DNA from: a virus
UHGV virus genome: UHGV-1351569
Reading direction: 5' to 3' (one strand)
DNA: 64,000 nucleotides
This document shows, one piece after another, positions 34,029 to 56,942 of this stretch. Made by a program: the position numbers and the translations under genes. Position 1 is the stretch's first letter. Every line of letters starts with the position of its first letter. The notes under the pieces were generated by a model. That model had not been told where the DNA came from and did not search any database. It worked only from the letters and a program-made list of their open reading frames with translations.

Positions 34029-36725
34029 ATGAAAGAATTTTATATCTCTATCGAAACAGTCGGAAATAACATTGTTGAACGTTATATTGATGAAAACGGA
34101 AAGGAACGTACTCGTGAAGTAGAATATCTTCCGACTATGTTTAGACATTGTAAGGAAGAGTCAAAATACAAAGACATCTATGGTAAAAATTGTGCTCCTC
34201 AAAAATTTCCATCAATGAAAGATGCACGAGATTGGATGAAGCGGATGGAAGACATCGGTCTCGAAGCTCTCGGTATGAACGATTTTAAACTCGCTTATAT
34301 CAGTGATACATATGGTTCAGAAATTGTTTATGACCGAAAATTTGTTCGTGTAGCTAACTGTGACATTGAGGTTACTGGTGATAAATTTCCTGACCCAATG
34401 AAAGCAGAATATGAAATTGATGCTATCACTCATTATGATTCAATTGACGATCGTTTTTATGTTTTCGACCTTTTGAATTCAATGTACGGTTCAGTATCAA
34501 AATGGGATGCAAAGTTAGCTGCTAAGCTTGACTGTGAAGGTGGTGATGAAGTTCCTCAAGAAATTCTTGACCGAGTAATTTATATGCCATTTGATAATGA
34601 GCGTGATATGCTCATGGAATATATTAATCTCTGGGAACAGAAACGACCTGCTATTTTTACTGGTTGGAATATTGAGGGATTTGACGTTCCGTATATCATG
34701 AATCGTGTTAAAATGATTCTAGGCGAACGCAGTATGAAACGTTTCTCTCCAATCGGTCGAGTAAAATCTAAACTAATTCAAAATATGTACGGCAGCAAAG
34801 AAATTTATTCTATTGATGGCGTATCTATTCTTGATTATTTAGATTTGTACAAGAAATTCGCTTTTACTAATTTGCCGTCATTCTCTTTGGAATCAGTTGC
34901 TCAACATGAAACCAAAAAAGGTAAATTGCCGTACGATGGTCCTATTAATAAACTTCGTGAGACTAATCATCAACGATACATTAGTTATAACATCATTGAC
35001 GTAGAATCAGTTCAAGCAATTGATAAAATTCGTGGGTTTATCGATCTAGTTTTAAGTATGTCTTATTACGCTAAAATGCCTTTTTCTGGTGTAATGAGTC
35101 CTATTAAAACTTGGGATGCTATTATTTTTAACTCGTTGAAAGGTGAACATAAGGTTATTCCTCAACAAGGTTCGCACGTTAAGCAGAGTTTTCCAGGCGC
35201 ATTTGTGTTTGAACCTAAACCGATTGCTCGTCGATACATTATGAGTTTTGACTTGACGTCTCTGTATCCTAGCATTATTCGTCAGGTTAACATTAGTCCT
35301 GAGACTATTCGTGGACAGTTCAAAGTTCATCCAATTCATGAATATATCGCAGGAACAGCTCCTAAGCCAAGTGATGAATATTCTTGTTCTCCGAATGGAT
35401 GGATGTATGATAAGCACCAAGAAGGTATTATTCCAAAGGAAATCGCTAAAGTATTTTTCCAGCGTAAAGACTGGAAAAAGAAAATGTTCGCGGAAGAAAT
35501 GAATGCCGAAGCTATTAAAAAGATTATTATGAAAGGTGCAGGGTCTTGCTCAACTAAACCAGAAGTTGAACGATATGTTAAGTTCAATGATGATTTCTTA
35601 AACGAATTATCGAATTACACCGAATCTGTTCTTAATAGTCTGATCGAAGAATGTGAAAAAGCAGCTACACTTGCTAACACAAATCAGCTGAACCGTAAAA
35701 TTCTTATCAACAGTCTTTATGGTGCTCTTGGTAATATTCATTTCCGTTACTATGATTTGCGAAATGCTACTGCTATCACAATTTTTGGTCAAGTCGGTAT
35801 TCAGTGGATTGCTCGTAAAATTAATGAATATCTGAATAAAGTATGCGGAACTAATGGTGAAGATTTCATCGCAGCAGGTGATACTGATTCAGTATATGTT
35901 TGTGTAGATAAAGTTATTGAAAAAGTAGGTCTTGACCGCTTTAAAGAACAAAATGATTTAGTTGAATTCATGAATCAGTTTGGTAAGAAAAAGATGGAAC
36001 CTATGATTGATGTTGCATATCGTGAGTTATGTGATTATATGAATAACCGCGAGCATCTGATGCATATGGACCGTGAAGCTATTTCTTGCCCTCCGCTTGG
36101 TTCAAAGGGTGTTGGTGGATTTTGGAAAGCGAAAAAACGTTATGCTCTGAACGTTTATGATATGGAAGATAAGCGATTTGCTGAACCGCATCTAAAAATC
36201 ATGGGTATGGAAACTCAGCAGAGTTCAACGCCAAAAGCAGTACAAGAAGCTCTCGAAGAAAGTATTCGTCGCATTCTTCAGGAAGGCGAAGAGTCTGTCC
36301 AAGAATACTATAAGAACTTTGAGAAAGAATATCGTCAACTTGATTATAAAGTTATTGCTGAAGTAAAAACTGCGAACGATATAGCGAAATATGATGATAA
36401 AGGTTGGCCAGGGTTTAAATGCCCGTTCCATATTCGTGGTGTACTAACTTATCGTCGAGCTGTTAGTGGTTTAGGTGTAGCTCCAATTTTGGATGGAAAT
36501 AAGGTAATGGTTCTTCCGTTACGTGAGGGAAATCCATTTGGTGACAAGTGCATTGCTTGGCCATCGGGTACGGAACTTCCAAAAGAAATTCGTTCTGACG
36601 TACTGTCTTGGATTGACTACTCAACTTTGTTCCAAAAATCGTTTGTTAAACCACTTGCGGGCATGTGTGAATCGGCAGGTATGGACTATGAGGAAAAAGC
36701 TTCGTTAGACTTCCTGTTTAGCTGA
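34029..36725 (+). CDS. 43: DNA polymerase gp43 (family B, with 3'-5' exonuclease)
   Basis: 898 aa; exo motif VANCDIEV, polymerase motifs SLYPS and YGDTDS. Confidence 0.97.
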   Translation: MKEFYISIETVGNNIVERYIDENGKERTREVEYLPTMFRHCKEESKYKDIYGKNCAPQKFPSMKDARDWMKRMEDIGLEALGMNDFKLAYISDTYGSEIVYDRKFVRVANCDIEVTGDKFPDPMKAEYEIDAITHYDSIDDRFYVFDLLNSMYGSVSKWDAKLAAKLDCEGGDEVPQEILDRVIYMPFDNERDMLMEYINLWEQKRPAIFTGWNIEGFDVPYIMNRVKMILGERSMKRFSPIGRVKSKLIQNMYGSKEIYSIDGVSILDYLDLYKKFAFTNLPSFSLESVAQHETKKGKLPYDGPINKLRETNHQRYISYNIIDVESVQAIDKIRGFIDLVLSMSYYAKMPFSGVMSPIKTWDAIIFNSLKGEHKVIPQQGSHVKQSFPGAFVFEPKPIARRYIMSFDLTSLYPSIIRQVNISPETIRGQFKVHPIHEYIAGTAPKPSDEYSCSPNGWMYDKHQEGIIPKEIAKVFFQRKDWKKKMFAEEMNAEAIKKIIMKGAGSCSTKPEVERYVKFNDDFLNELSNYTESVLNSLIEECEKAATLANTNQLNRKILINSLYGALGNIHFRYYDLRNATAITIFGQVGIQWIARKINEYLNKVCGTNGEDFIAAGDTDSVYVCVDKVIEKVGLDRFKEQNDLVEFMNQFGKKKMEPMIDVAYRELCDYMNNREHLMHMDREAISCPPLGSKGVGGFWKAKKRYALNVYDMEDKRFAEPHLKIMGMETQQSSTPKAVQEALEESIRRILQEGEESVQEYYKNFEKEYRQLDYKVIAEVKTANDIAKYDDKGWPGFKCPFHIRGVLTYRRAVSGLGVAPILDGNKVMVLPLREGNPFGDKCIAWPSGTELPKEIRSDVLSWIDYSTLFQKSFVKPLAGMCESAGMDYEEKASLDFLFS

Positions 36726-36737
36726 TAGAATAAATCT

Positions 36738-36760
36738 AGGGACCTCCGGGTCCCTTTTTC
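36738..36760 (+). terminator. rho-independent terminator
   Basis: gggacc-tccg-ggtccc then ttttt. Confidence 0.65.
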
Positions 36761-36842: not shown

Positions 36843-36872
36843 GTTTACATCTCTGTTCTTCCATGGTACTAT
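36843..36872 (+). promoter_or_regulatory. T4-type early promoter with conserved leader (PeSL-like cassette)
   Basis: GTTTAC, 18-bp spacer, TACTAT, leader acaactatcaactacggaggaacagaaaATG. Confidence 0.5.
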
Positions 36873-36900: not shown

Positions 36901-37152
36901 ATGAAAAATATTCAAACTAATTTTATTCAAAATTTAAAAGTTGTTAACGCAGAAAAAGCGAATAAACTTTTTAAAGTTAAAGAATTTGAAAATGAAGGTA
37001 ACACTTACGGTATTATAGAACAAAATGGAATGGTGACTGGATTAGAAATTTATAATGGTAAAGGAAAATTTCAGTCACAGCCAATTTCTGTTATGGGTGT
37101 AAGAAAAGGAATTAAAACTGAAGATGCTTTAAAGTTATTTGTTAAGTTTTAA
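36901..37152 (+). CDS. hypothetical protein, 83 aa
   Basis: ORF downstream of conserved leader. Confidence 0.55.
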   Translation: MKNIQTNFIQNLKVVNAEKANKLFKVKEFENEGNTYGIIEQNGMVTGLEIYNGKGKFQSQPISVMGVRKGIKTEDALKLFVKF

Positions 37153-37164
37153 GAGGAAATTATT

Positions 37165-37545
37165 ATGAAAATCGCTATTTTGGTTATTGCATTAGGTCTT
37201 ACTGGTTGTGTAGCTCAAGGACCGGTAGTAAATCAGTCTGATGTAGGAAAAATTGTAAACTGTTCAAGCAAGTTTTATAATCCTAATGTCAAGTGTTATA
37301 AAGAAGCTCCAAAACAGACAGTAGAACAAATGCAGGCGAATTTTGACGAAGCTATTCGTCCAGATGAATCTGCTCAAGCATATCGTAATTCGGATGTAAT
37401 TACACGCGAAGAAAAAATTGAAAACTACTGCGCAGAACTTTGGGCAAATTGGGCTAATAATTACCAATGGCGTACTGGTAAAAATGCTCCGATGGAGTAT
37501 GTAGTGAATTCTTATAATTCATGTGTAAAAAATTTGACTAAGTGA
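37165..37545 (+). CDS. putative lipoprotein, 126 aa
   Basis: Signal peptide with lipobox LGLTGC at residues 11-16. Confidence 0.6.
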   Translation: MKIAILVIALGLTGCVAQGPVVNQSDVGKIVNCSSKFYNPNVKCYKEAPKQTVEQMQANFDEAIRPDESAQAYRNSDVITREEKIENYCAELWANWANNYQWRTGKNAPMEYVVNSYNSCVKNLTK

Positions 37546-37552
37546 GGAAAAC

Positions 37553-37804
37553 ATGGAAACTTTAGTAGCAGGTTCAATTTTTATGGTTTTAGTTTCAGGT
37601 GTGTTGGCTATTATTATATACATGCTTCCATGGTTTATCGCCTTGATGCGTGGGTCAAAATCGACAGTAGGAATCTTTTTCACATCTTTACTGTTTAACT
37701 GGTCAATTATTGGTTGGTTTATTACATTTATTTGGTCAATTGCAGGTGAAACTAAAAAGTCTGCACAGCCAAATCAGGTAATTATCATCAGAGAGAAGGA
37801 ATGA
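37553..37804 (+). CDS. imm: superinfection immunity protein Imm
   Basis: 83 aa, two TM helices, position before gene 42. Confidence 0.8.
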   Translation: METLVAGSIFMVLVSGVLAIIIYMLPWFIALMRGSKSTVGIFFTSLLFNWSIIGWFITFIWSIAGETKKSAQPNQVIIIREKE

Positions 37805-37950
37805 AAAGCAAAATTATAACAGTGTTGCTTTTAATCTTGATGATTATAATAAGTATATACTATAGTGTAACGGTTCCTCTTATGATTCCAACTATTATTT
37901 TAGGTTGGGGTTTATTACTGTTACAAGTTAAATATGAATGTATCAATTGA
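37801..37950 (+). CDS. small membrane protein, 49 aa (below track cutoff)
   Basis: Hand-translated; aATGa overlap with imm stop; strongly hydrophobic. Confidence 0.4.
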   Translation: MKSKIITVLLLILMIIISIYYSVTVPLMIPTIILGWGLLLLQVKYECIN

Positions 37951-37957
37951 GGTTTAA

Positions 37958-38698
37958 ATGATTAGTGACTCTATGACAGTTGAAGAAATCCGTCTTCATT
38001 TGGGACTTGCATTAAAAGAAAAAGATTTCGTAGTTGATAAAACTGGCGTTAAAACTATTGAAATTATTGGCGCATCATTTGTAGCAGATGAACCGTTTAT
38101 TTTTGGCGCTCTTAATGATGAATACATTCAGCGTGAACTTGAATGGTATAAATCTAAAAGCTTGTTCGTTAAAGATATTCCAGGTGAAACACCGAAGATT
38201 TGGCAACAAGTAGCATCTTCTAAAGGTGAAATTAACTCGAATTATGGTTGGGCTATCTGGTCAGAAGATAACTATGCCCAGTATGATATGTGTTTAGCTG
38301 AACTTGGTCAAAATCCTGATTCTCGACGTGGTATCATGATTTATACTCGTCCATCCATGCAATTTGACTACAATAAAGATGGCATGTCAGATTTCATGTG
38401 TACTAATACAGTACAGTACCTGATTCGTGATAAGAAAGTCAATGCAGTAGTAAGCATGCGCTCAAATGATGTGGTCTTCGGATTCCGTAATGATTATGCA
38501 TGGCAAAAATACGTATTAGATAAATTAGTATCTGATTTGAATGCAGGCGATTCAACTCGTCAGTATAAAGCAGGTTCTATTATATGGAATGTTGGAAGTC
38601 TTCATGTATATTCTCGTCATTTTTACTTGGTTGATCATTGGTGGAATACTGGCGAAACTCATATTGTGAAAAAAGATTATAACGGTGAGTGGAAATGA
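37958..38698 (+). CDS. 42: dCMP hydroxymethylase gp42
   Basis: 246 aa; thymidylate-synthase-like fold; size and position as in T4. Confidence 0.9.
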   Translation: MISDSMTVEEIRLHLGLALKEKDFVVDKTGVKTIEIIGASFVADEPFIFGALNDEYIQRELEWYKSKSLFVKDIPGETPKIWQQVASSKGEINSNYGWAIWSEDNYAQYDMCLAELGQNPDSRRGIMIYTRPSMQFDYNKDGMSDFMCTNTVQYLIRDKKVNAVVSMRSNDVVFGFRNDYAWQKYVLDKLVSDLNAGDSTRQYKAGSIIWNVGSLHVYSRHFYLVDHWWNTGETHIVKKDYNGEWK

Positions 38699-39537
38699 TT
38701 CAATTCGTAATTCCAAGCTATCAACGCGTAGGGGCAGTTTCTGCCCTTGATATGTTTCCGACTGATTATGAACCTCATATTGTAGTACGTGAACACGAAG
38801 AAAAAGCTTATTATGACGCTTACGGGTCTAGGGCTAAAATTATAACTATTCCTGATGATGTAAACGGAATTGCCGGTACTCGTAAAGCAATTACTGATAT
38901 GTATGCAGGTCAACGAATCTGGATGATTGACGATGATACTACTATTCGTATGAGTTCAATGCGAAAAAGAGATGATCGTCGTTGTGTAGATAAAGTCAAT
39001 CAATTGACTCGTGAACAGTTCTATGAATTGATTCAATATGTTGAGGATGCCATGGATTGTGGGTATTATCATGGCCATGCTCGTCTACCTATTTTTAAAA
39101 TTACTTCATCTTGGGGTAATTATCGTGAAAATTCATATGGATTCACGAATACATGGTATGACCTCGGAAAACTTACTACAGAACAAATTGGGTATGGAAA
39201 AATTGATTTATGCGAAGATATGTATGCATTTCTCAATTTAATTAATCAAGGTTATCCGCATTTGGCCTTGTTCAAATATCTGGTTGTATCTGGAAAAGCA
39301 CAAGCTCCTGGCGGGTGTAGTTCAATTCGTAGTAATTCTAAACATAATAGAGCGCTTGAGCAAATCAATAGAGAGTTTCCAGAGCAAGCTCGTTGGAAAA
39401 CTTCTAATATTGAAAAACGAAAATCGTTGGGTGAAGAAGACGAGCCATTAAAGGTTCTTCGTATGTGTGTTTCGCGTAAAGAAAAATCAGAAGCATTTCA
39501 TAAGTTTAATGCTATTCATCCAATAGCAGTTGATTAA
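38695..39537 (+). CDS. putative DNA glycosyltransferase (T2/T6 beta-alpha-gt-like), 280 aa
   Basis: Occupies the 42-uvsX slot where T4 has beta-gt but does not resemble T4 beta-gt; ATG 38695 overlaps gene 42 stop. Confidence 0.5.
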   Translation: MIQFVIPSYQRVGAVSALDMFPTDYEPHIVVREHEEKAYYDAYGSRAKIITIPDDVNGIAGTRKAITDMYAGQRIWMIDDDTTIRMSSMRKRDDRRCVDKVNQLTREQFYELIQYVEDAMDCGYYHGHARLPIFKITSSWGNYRENSYGFTNTWYDLGKLTTEQIGYGKIDLCEDMYAFLNLINQGYPHLALFKYLVVSGKAQAPGGCSSIRSNSKHNRALEQINREFPEQARWKTSNIEKRKSLGEEDEPLKVLRMCVSRKEKSEAFHKFNAIHPIAVD

Positions 39538-43128: not shown

Positions 43129-43422
43129 ATGAAAAAATTTATCTTTGCTGCAATTTTTGCTTTATCTTCTTGCGCTGCTCAGCCTGCTATGGCGGGTTAT
43201 GACAAAGATTTGTGTGAATGGTCTATGACCGCAGATCAGACTGAAGTTGAAACTCAAATTGAAGCGGATATTATGAATATCGTTGAGCGTGATCGTCCTG
43301 AAATGAAAGCTGAAGTGCAAAAACAGCTTAAGTCTGGTGGTGTAATGCAGTATAATTACGTTCTGTATTGTGATAAAAACTTCAATAATAAAAATATCAT
43401 CGCTGAAGTGGTAGGTGAGTAA
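43129..43422 (+). CDS. sp: Spackle periplasmic protein
   Basis: 97 aa with signal peptide; matches recalled T4 Sp. Confidence 0.8.
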   Translation: MKKFIFAAIFALSSCAAQPAMAGYDKDLCEWSMTADQTEVETQIEADIMNIVERDRPEMKAEVQKQLKSGGVMQYNYVLYCDKNFNNKNIIAEVVGE

Positions 43423-56669: not shown

Positions 56670-56942
56670 TTGAGTGAAATTATGAAATATGTTAATCGTT
56701 CTATCGCGGCATTAGTATTAGCAGTGTCTTTAGCAGGATGTACTGATGCTGATAATGCAACCAAAGTTTTGTCTTCAAGTGGTTTTACTAATATTGAAAT
56801 CACTGGATATAATTGGTTCGGTTGCTCTGAAAATGATTTCCAGCATACTGGATTTCGTGCTATTGGACCTACCGGACAGAAAGTAGAAGGAACAGTATGT
56901 TCTGGTCTATTCTTCAAGGATTCGACTATCCGTTTTAAATAA
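56670..56942 (+). CDS. putative lipoprotein, 90 aa
   Basis: Signal peptide with lipobox LAGC. Confidence 0.55.
   Translation: MSEIMKYVNRSIAALVLAVSLAGCTDADNATKVLSSSGFTNIEITGYNWFGCSENDFQHTGFRAIGPTGQKVEGTVCSGLFFKDSTIRFK

Follow-up and report, generated by a model that had tools for sequence, protein, structure and literature searches.

Two conserved small genes beside the superinfection immunity gene imm of a T-even phage: imm.1, encoding a predicted lipoprotein, and 42.1, encoding a predicted membrane peptide

The superinfection immunity gene imm of T-even phages is flanked by two small open reading frames (ORFs), which raises the question of whether their products are envelope proteins and whether they share in superinfection exclusion. 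We consider the question in the virus genome UHGV-1351569, of which a stretch of 64,000 nt was analysed (the window), the three genes occupying positions 37,165–37,950. A preliminary description of this locus had placed a 126 aa lipoprotein before imm and a 49 aa hydrophobic peptide after it, and had suggested that both may contribute to superinfection exclusion or membrane remodelling. When re-read from the window the coordinates given there for both ORFs proved exact, as did the overlap of the 49 aa ORF with the imm stop codon. The 126 aa ORF is the T-even gene imm.1, already catalogued and annotated but uncharacterised, and the 49 aa ORF encodes gp42.1, the product of a catalogued T-even gene that is real and conserved; most T4-like phages keep both genes near imm. 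Together, imm.1, imm and 42.1 form one compact cassette with overlapping ribosome-binding signals. It is reasonable to hypothesise that the two flanking genes serve in superinfection exclusion or in protection of the envelope, with some comparative support in the case of Imm.1 and less in the case of 42.1. The window phage is a T2/RB51-like Tequatrovirus (T-even), and the 1.3 kb region around the cassette displays 97–98% identity to phages Ozark, RB27, RB51 and T2. The features of the cassette are:

37165–37545, + strand: imm.1, 126 aa ORF (Pfam DUF5481, PHROG 1754)
37165–37209, + strand: predicted Imm.1 signal peptide with lipobox (Cys15 codon at 37207–37209; residue +2 is Val)
37553–37804, + strand: imm, 83 aa (PF14373, 7.7e-16; PHROG 1039, 'immunity to superinfection')
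37801–37950, + strand: 42.1, 49 aa ORF (PHROG 3610, 5e-26, full length)

The genes imm.1 and imm are 7 nt apart. The Shine-Dalgarno sequence of imm (GAGGAA, 37544–37549, + strand) lies 3 nt before the imm ATG and contains part of the imm.1 stop codon (TGA, 37543–45), while the 42.1 ATG and the imm stop share the sequence ATGA at 37801–37804; this layout suggests that translation may be coupled from imm.1 to imm and from imm to 42.1. The imm product is identical to those of T2 and RB51 at 83/83 residues and to that of T4 at 82/83, and alone among the three proteins matches the PF14373 (Imm_superinfect) profile, which neither Imm.1 nor gp42.1 does. T4 Imm, the PF14373 member of reference, belongs to the same cassette and the same early unit and is likewise an envelope protein.

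The product of the upstream gene matches DUF5481 at 5.4e-72 (239.2 bits compared to a cutoff of 27) and PHROG 1754 at 5e-44, contains all of the family residues (the lipobox Gly-Cys, Tyr38, Cys89 and Cys120), and is encoded where the family is expected, beside imm in the interval between genes 43 and 42. It is identical to Imm.1 of RB51 at 126/126 residues, of T2 at 124/126 and of T4 at 124/125, and 502 Tequatrovirus phage records contain it at an identity of at least 95%. Between the window and T4 the proportion of synonymous differences (pS) is 0.10 and that of non-synonymous differences (pN) approximately 0.00, giving an omega of 0.03 and thus indicating purifying selection; values within Tequatrovirus range from 0.03 to 0.07. 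We found no material difference from T4 Imm.1 (UniProt P18057), whose gene likewise lies upstream of imm and shares the early-type promoter sequence. In T4 the gene is expressed early at both the RNA and protein levels (PMC9697503, supplements). A CRISPRi-ART screen of T4 scored imm.1 as 'Not Fit' (score -0.77, p 0.98) and listed it as 'Unknown', PHROG 1754 (PMC11879866, supplements 8 and 15), and HIDEN-SEQ of T4 classed it as 'Non-essential', with insertions tolerated at 31/31 sites, and imm likewise at 20/20 (10.1101/2025.11.20.689424, supplement 7). Such dispensability would be expected of a gene for competition or protection, and equally of any accessory gene.

A literature search with imm.1, DUF5481 and the accession numbers found no study on the function of Imm.1 or gp42.1. 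The label 'immunity protein' on many Imm.1 records is apparently a transfer of the name, for which we found no supporting experiment. Other labels on this stretch in public records (NC_054931.1, AP018813.1 and many others) are annotation noise: imm.1 is 'iduronate sulfatase' in RefSeq T2, a 'tail tape measure protein' appears here in AP018813, and RefSeq labels gene 42 'thymidylate synthase'.

The downstream gene, 42.1, is named in the RB51 and RB32 records, where both the ORF and its overlap with the imm stop recur, and its counterpart in RB69 is ORF054c, in whose record a similarity to the 'T4 42-imm intercistronic region' was already remarked. In T4 (AF158101 26220–26372; L003 3138–3290) the gene is unannotated in a 153 nt gap between imm and 42, with its frame intact (MKSKIIAALLL...KYECIN), and it is likewise unannotated in the 153 nt gap in T2 (LC348380; L002 2606–2758), where the DNA is 97% identical to the window. 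Relatives of gp42.1 match PHROG 3610 at 4e-21 to 8e-27, and the window protein has both the profile match and the C-terminal motif of this family. We compared 42.1 between five genera: Tequatrovirus, Mosigvirus (RB69), Kanagawavirus (Kosakonia 305), Winklervirus (Gravdalen) and Kagamiyamavirus (EcS1). Change at synonymous sites has reached saturation (pS 0.56–0.99), while pN is 0.21–0.35 and omega 0.16–0.31, and substitutions fall in the order third > first > second codon position. At least eight lineages retain the frame, a length of 45–49 aa and the motif IYW..T.P.MIPT...W....LQ.K..C.N, and in some of their genomes a gene other than 42 follows. A practical by-product is a correction to annotation: the reference records of T4 and T2 lack 42.1, although it is a genuine gene. 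RB69 ORF054c is annotated 11 codons too short, the conserved 47 aa frame beginning MKAITIG.... The RB69-type gp42.1 also differs from the others in being encoded within a cluster with an arabinose-5-phosphate isomerase gene, away from imm. A partnership specific to gene 42 was rejected, since four lineages have 42 without 42.1, and 42.1 of the RB69 type precedes a different gene.

Both proteins have sequences suited to the envelope. The hydropathy average (GRAVY) of gp42.1 is 1.57, with hydrophobic windows over residues 1–43; lysines at positions 2 and 4 precede a hydrophobic stretch (residues 5–41) that is broken by a conserved S-x-T-x-P-x-M-I-P-T turn, suggesting a membrane peptide with one or two spans. 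Imm.1 begins with MKIAILVIALGLTGC, in which Lys2 is followed by a hydrophobic core of 10 residues and the lipobox L-T-G-C ending at Cys15, a lipoprotein-type n-region, h-region and lipobox; beyond the signal the protein is hydrophilic (GRAVY -0.48). It is one of only 6 of the 347 ORFs in the window that pass a PROSITE PS00013-type rule, compared to 0.58 ± 0.64 in shuffled sequence. The lipobox noted in the preliminary description was therefore correctly read and its suggestion of envelope targeting fits both sequences, while 'membrane remodelling' found no specific support. The lipobox is canonical in 14 of the 16 lineage sequences read (10 of 12 in a first table), the Dhakavirus and Gaprivervirus proteins having LLSGC, and Imm.1 is probably lipidated at Cys15. 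The residue at +2 is Val here and V, G, S, Q or A in relatives, but Asp in none, for which the E. coli sorting rule (Lol pathway) predicts the outer membrane.

An alignment of 11 divergent members of the Imm.1 family has invariant columns at G14, Y38, C89 and C120. An AlphaFold2 (AF2) model from a six-sequence alignment predicts helices at residues 53–63, 68–75, 81–104 and 110–125. Its confidence (pLDDT) is 64 overall (60 from the single sequence) and reaches 85–92 only at residues 81–125, a hairpin containing the invariant C89/C120 pair, which would most simply be a periplasmic disulfide. DUF5481 misses the proteins encoded just before imm in other genera, all of which fall in PHROG 1754 (2e-15 to 8e-52). 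The two lipoprotein subfamilies align in hhalign with 97.9% probability, and removal of the signal peptides leaves a probability of 88.7% across 103 columns, in which the two cysteines still line up.

Foldseek of Imm.1 against the PDB gave no match below E = 1, and against BFVD recovered only its own family, annotated 'Immunity protein' or 'Lipoprotein'. A sequence profile search of the PDB gave no match, PADLOC no meaningful match, and a word-indexed protein search near-identical sequences only. An exhaustive search of 1.84 billion representatives yielded six relatives, so the family is narrow, with no bacterial homologue to give a functional lead. A type VI secretion system (T6SS) immunity periplasmic lipoprotein model (NCBIfam NF045617) was rejected: 3 of the 11 family members match it, the window protein does not, and the best score is 18.9 bits compared to a cutoff of 43.

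What might such proteins do beside imm? Imm is a polytopic inner-membrane protein, and Lu and Henning reportedly found in 1989 that plasmid-borne imm alone excludes T4, being sufficient for partial exclusion. The other known T-even exclusion gene encodes Spackle and lies 5.3 kb downstream:

43129–43422, + strand: sp (spackle), PHROG 1586, 8.4e-47

We tentatively propose, from context only, that Imm.1, Imm and gp42.1 are accessory, non-essential envelope proteins that protect the infected cell from secondarily adsorbing T-even virions, alongside Spackle; this is a possible rather than a probable role. Imm.1 would be exported by the Sec pathway, lipidated at Cys15, cleaved by signal peptidase II and sorted by the Lol pathway to the inner leaflet of the outer membrane. 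There it would display a periplasmic domain of approximately 110 residues, with a core predicted to be the helical hairpin 81–125 stapled by Cys89–Cys120. The predicted inner-membrane peptide gp42.1 would insert with one or two spans, and would be produced together with Imm from early transcripts, but not from those that begin at a promoter-like site inside 42.1. The protective effects would be exclusion of incoming DNA and resistance to damage from without, and Imm.1, working from the periplasm or the outer membrane, may engage the tip of the arriving tail or else assist Imm where injection takes place. Exclusion in T-even phages acts after adsorption, leaving secondary adsorption unblocked, and over 50 years after Imm was discovered its way of blocking DNA entry has yet to be explained (PMC6832632).

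In a more speculative form of this proposal, which we regard as doubtful, Imm.1 (in the outer membrane or periplasm) and Imm and gp42.1 (both in the inner membrane) would make up one trans-envelope exclusion device, whose lipoprotein would recognise or trap the tail tip of a T-even virion that adsorbs secondarily, or would position Imm where injection occurs. If true, this would explain how a scarce membrane protein of 83 residues can stop DNA ejection half-way, and would make Imm.1 a third, overlooked T-even exclusion factor. Any role of Imm.1 or gp42.1 in exclusion would be relevant to the design of T-even phage cocktails. For study of the Imm mechanism, an obvious and cheap candidate is a gene that is conserved and early, encodes a predicted exported product, moves together with imm and lies between dmd and spackle in one genus.

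Comparison of gene order among T4-like phages provides the comparative evidence. The following orders were found ('lipoprotein' denotes a member of PHROG 1754):

Tequatrovirus: 43, (variable ORF), lipoprotein, imm, 42.1, 42
metagenomic L046: 43, frd.3-like, Imm.1, imm, 42.1, 42
metagenomic L047: 43, lipoprotein, imm, 42.1, 42
metagenomic L049: 43, lipoprotein, imm, 42
S16 (Gelderlandvirus), CkP1 (Karamvirus) and Roth51/Metamorpho (Jiaodavirus-type): 43, lipoprotein, imm, 42
Dhakavirus (UGJNEcP3, CUA3) and Gaprivervirus (TH44): 43, imm, 42.1, lipoprotein, the 42.1 start again overlapping the imm stop
Mosigvirus: dmd, lipoprotein, imm, sp, with 42.1 left at 43, (arabinose-5-P isomerase), 42.1
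Kosakonia 305, Gravdalen and EcS1: 43, lipoprotein, (arabinose-5-P isomerase), 42.1, with imm not alongside

In 10/10 of the imm-bearing Tevenvirinae lineages sampled, at most one gene separates the lipoprotein gene from imm. This proximity has been kept through two independent rearrangements, and that in Mosigvirus sets the pair beside sp. In five lineages 42.1 is predicted to be translationally coupled to imm. Among 15 loci with an Imm_superinfect gene outside the T4-like phages, the 12 with a delimitable imm ORF have no Imm.1-like lipoprotein upstream, as judged by lipobox scan and reading, with no hidden Markov model (HMM) applied. An unrelated high-GC viral contig does contain a 75 aa lipobox (LSGC) ORF (L042 2228–2455) ending 21 nt before an Imm_superinfect gene; the ORF is apparently unrelated, and may be an independent pairing of a lipoprotein with Imm or a chance arrangement.

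Several observations weigh against a role in exclusion. The literature search returned no experiment tying imm.1 or 42.1 to it, and searches by sequence and by structure found no relative of known function for Imm.1, the model of which is poor outside the C-terminal hairpin. Adjacency is weak evidence alone, because T4-like genomes are strongly syntenic. The gene 42.1 is missing from four imm-bearing lineages, and in Mosigvirus it lies apart from imm, having stayed behind as imm.1-imm moved. In EcS1, a six-frame Imm HMM scan of the whole genome (assembled from six loci) gave a best E of 0.016 compared to 1e-41 for the window control, and Pfam rejects the candidate, yet this phage keeps 42.1, sp and a lipoprotein gene under purifying selection (omega 0.07 compared to Gravdalen). 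These cases argue against an obligate partnership of lipoprotein, 42.1 and imm. Lipidation, too, is open to objection: one family member carries a signal-peptidase-I-type signal, and Spackle in the window also fits the lipobox rule, with a Cys15 that is invariant in an alignment of four genera, although it is described as a mature protein of 75 aa once its periplasmic localisation signal has been cleaved (PMC7677548).

The survival of the lipoprotein in a genome without imm argues for some activity independent of Imm, and the main alternative, possible though rated only tentatively, is that Imm.1 works independently of Imm. It would then act on an envelope target of the host, for example by inhibiting or stabilising a periplasmic or outer-membrane component during infection, and its place by imm would be an inherited early-operon order. 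The lipoprotein gene directly follows gene 43 without an adjacent imm in EcS1 and, by local context, in Kosakonia 305 and Gravdalen (an Erwinia phage), and length classes of Imm do not track the lipoprotein subfamilies, which favours independence. Against this, two separate rearrangements each left the lipoprotein no more than one gene from imm, one of them beside sp, and no candidate for a host target emerged from any search made. Should Imm.1 prove to have no role in exclusion, genomes of the EcS1 type point to an Imm-independent envelope function.

It is unlikely that Imm.1 is instead cleaved by signal peptidase I and set free in the periplasm as a soluble protein, possibly an inhibitor of an enzyme of the superinfecting virion in the manner of Spackle. 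In favour of this is P0004 (L046 718–1086), a relative 44% identical to Imm.1 and encoded upstream of imm and 42.1, in which Phe replaces the lipobox Cys and is followed by an AHA|S site of signal-peptidase-I type; it may be a naturally soluble version of Imm.1. In Imm.1 itself the sequence C-V-A|Q following Cys15 is a possible signal-peptidase-I site. The second exception to the canonical lipobox, P0007, has TTGC with its Cys in register, in keeping with lipidation, as are the canonical motifs of the other 14 sequences, and the short h-region and motif at residues 12–19 are typical of signal peptidase II substrates. Comparison with Spackle (gp61.3 of T4) cuts both ways. It is a known exclusion factor, adjoins imm.1-imm in Mosigvirus, and resembles Imm.1 in being early, exported, small and helical with one disulfide (PMC7677548). 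Since it passes the lipobox rule but is reported as a cleaved 75 aa protein, the Imm.1 lipobox is strong, though not conclusive, evidence for lipidation. On the other hand, Spackle has a known target, the gp5 lysozyme, while Imm.1 has no fold match to solved structures, and hhalign aligns only their 19-residue signal peptides and nothing in the mature domain. Homology between the two was accordingly rejected, and Imm.1 is not a member of the Spackle family (PHROG 1586). The faint, sub-threshold likeness of three family members to the T6SS immunity model would also suit a soluble protein, but we rejected it as evidence. The signal peptide of Spackle itself contains the lipobox-like sequence F-A-L-S-S-C15, and either this motif is unused or the processing of Spackle deserves a second look. 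The third lipobox ORF counted in the window along with Imm.1 and Spackle encodes 90 aa (56670–56942, + strand; MSEIMKYVNRSIAALVLAVSLAGC..., PHROG 902).

The small lipoproteins Llp of T5 and Cor of phi80 and N15, which like predicted Imm.1 belong to the inner leaflet of the outer membrane, alter the susceptibility of the infected or lysogenic cell, FhuA being the target that Llp acts on from its periplasmic face (PMC9586334). Imm.1 shares their general design, that of a small early phage lipoprotein, and might by analogy mask a receptor and so block adsorption from the periplasmic side, but this is very unlikely. No sequence or profile relation to Llp or Cor was found, Imm.1 having no Pfam match except DUF5481 and fold hits in BFVD and the PDB being to its own family only. 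Nor does it have the receptor-tied specificity of these proteins. The receptors of T-even phages differ (OmpC/LPS, FadL/OmpF, Tsx), whereas Imm.1 is nearly invariant, being 98–99% identical between T2 and T4 and at least 95% identical in the 502 Tequatrovirus records, which argues against receptor masking. T-even exclusion moreover does not stop secondary adsorption (PMC6832632).

That imm.1 and 42.1 form a lysis pair, an o-spanin-like lipoprotein with a holin- or antiholin-like peptide, is highly improbable, for although an outer-membrane lipoprotein and a small inner-membrane protein are broadly of the right type, T4 imm.1 is expressed early and not late and is dispensable for growth, its neighbours (43, imm and 42) include no i-spanin or other lysis gene, its mature domain of approximately 110 aa is helical and unlike short o-spanins, and EcS1 has Rz-like spanins and a holin annotated separately. 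Equally hard to credit is that the 49-codon frame is no gene and owes its conservation to the promoter and ribosome-binding sequences of gene 42: the stretch is indeed treated as intergenic in the reference annotations of T4 and T2 and a promoter-like element sits within it, but the saturated synonymous sites, limited amino-acid change, codon-position order and retention of frame, length and motif even in genomes without gene 42 next to it rule out a mere conserved promoter region.

The surroundings of the cassette contain the following features:

34029–36725, + strand: gene 43
36738–36755, + strand: terminator-like hairpin just 3' of gene 43 (7 bp stem with 5 GC pairs, then the T-run TTTTTCAT)
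36844–36872, + strand: putative T4 early-type promoter, gTTTACA-17-TACTAT with TG extension (9/12 consensus match)
36901–37152, + strand: 83 aa hydrophilic ORF, PHROG 18567 (7.4e-52), in the variable slot between 43 and imm.1
37826–37850, + strand: promoter-like element within 42.1, TGCTTTT-12 nt-TATAAT (MotA-box-like, one mismatch)
37958–38698, + strand: gene 42, dCMP hydroxymethylase, at the downstream end of the cassette

The same hairpin is present in the spacer between 43 and imm.1 in T4. The early-type promoter would head a unit comprising the 83 aa ORF, imm.1, imm, 42.1 and 42; its sequence (CTGTTTACA...TGGTACTATAC) is kept in T4, where it lies directly upstream of imm.1, and in metagenomic L047. 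The element within 42.1 is predicted to drive gene 42 without 42.1, and the annotation of phage Lutter has a 'promoter' feature at the corresponding site. The strict MotA-box pattern has no match within 42.1, and the element is therefore graded as promoter-like only. An exact MotA-box match (TGCTTTA...TAAGTT) does occur at 37125–37148, at the end of the 83 aa ORF and 17 nt before the imm.1 start, and may serve imm.1-imm as a middle promoter; across the window the pattern occurs more often than expected (18 matches compared to 6.2).

The 83 aa ORF is annotated in RB51 and T2 and missing from T4, has no hydrophobic segment, and falls outside the envelope set. Its slot is variable, being occupied in other T-evens by an ORF of approximately 97 aa with a hydrophobic N-terminus (L021 1809–2102; L023 1656–2102) and in metagenomic L046 by the frd.3-like ORF (450–662). 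In several genera (L004 RB69, L005 Kosakonia 305, L006 Gravdalen, L007 EcS1 and L051–L053) the imm.1/imm/42.1 slot after gene 43 contains an inserted cassette of arabinose-5-phosphate isomerase and nucleotidyltransferase genes, taken to be a cassette for arabinosyl-hydroxymethylcytosine (arabinosyl-hmC) modification. As each genus splits imm.1, imm and 42.1 differently, the slot appears to be a recombination hot spot for DNA-modification modules. Following gene 42 in the window, and overlapping its end, is a beta-glucosyl-HMC-alpha-glucosyltransferase gene (38689–39537; PHROG 842; Pfam TAGT, 1.2e-09) and not that of the T4 beta-glucosyltransferase; this enzyme is of the T2/T6 type, and glucosylation of the DNA of the window phage is therefore expected to be T2/T6-like rather than T4-like.

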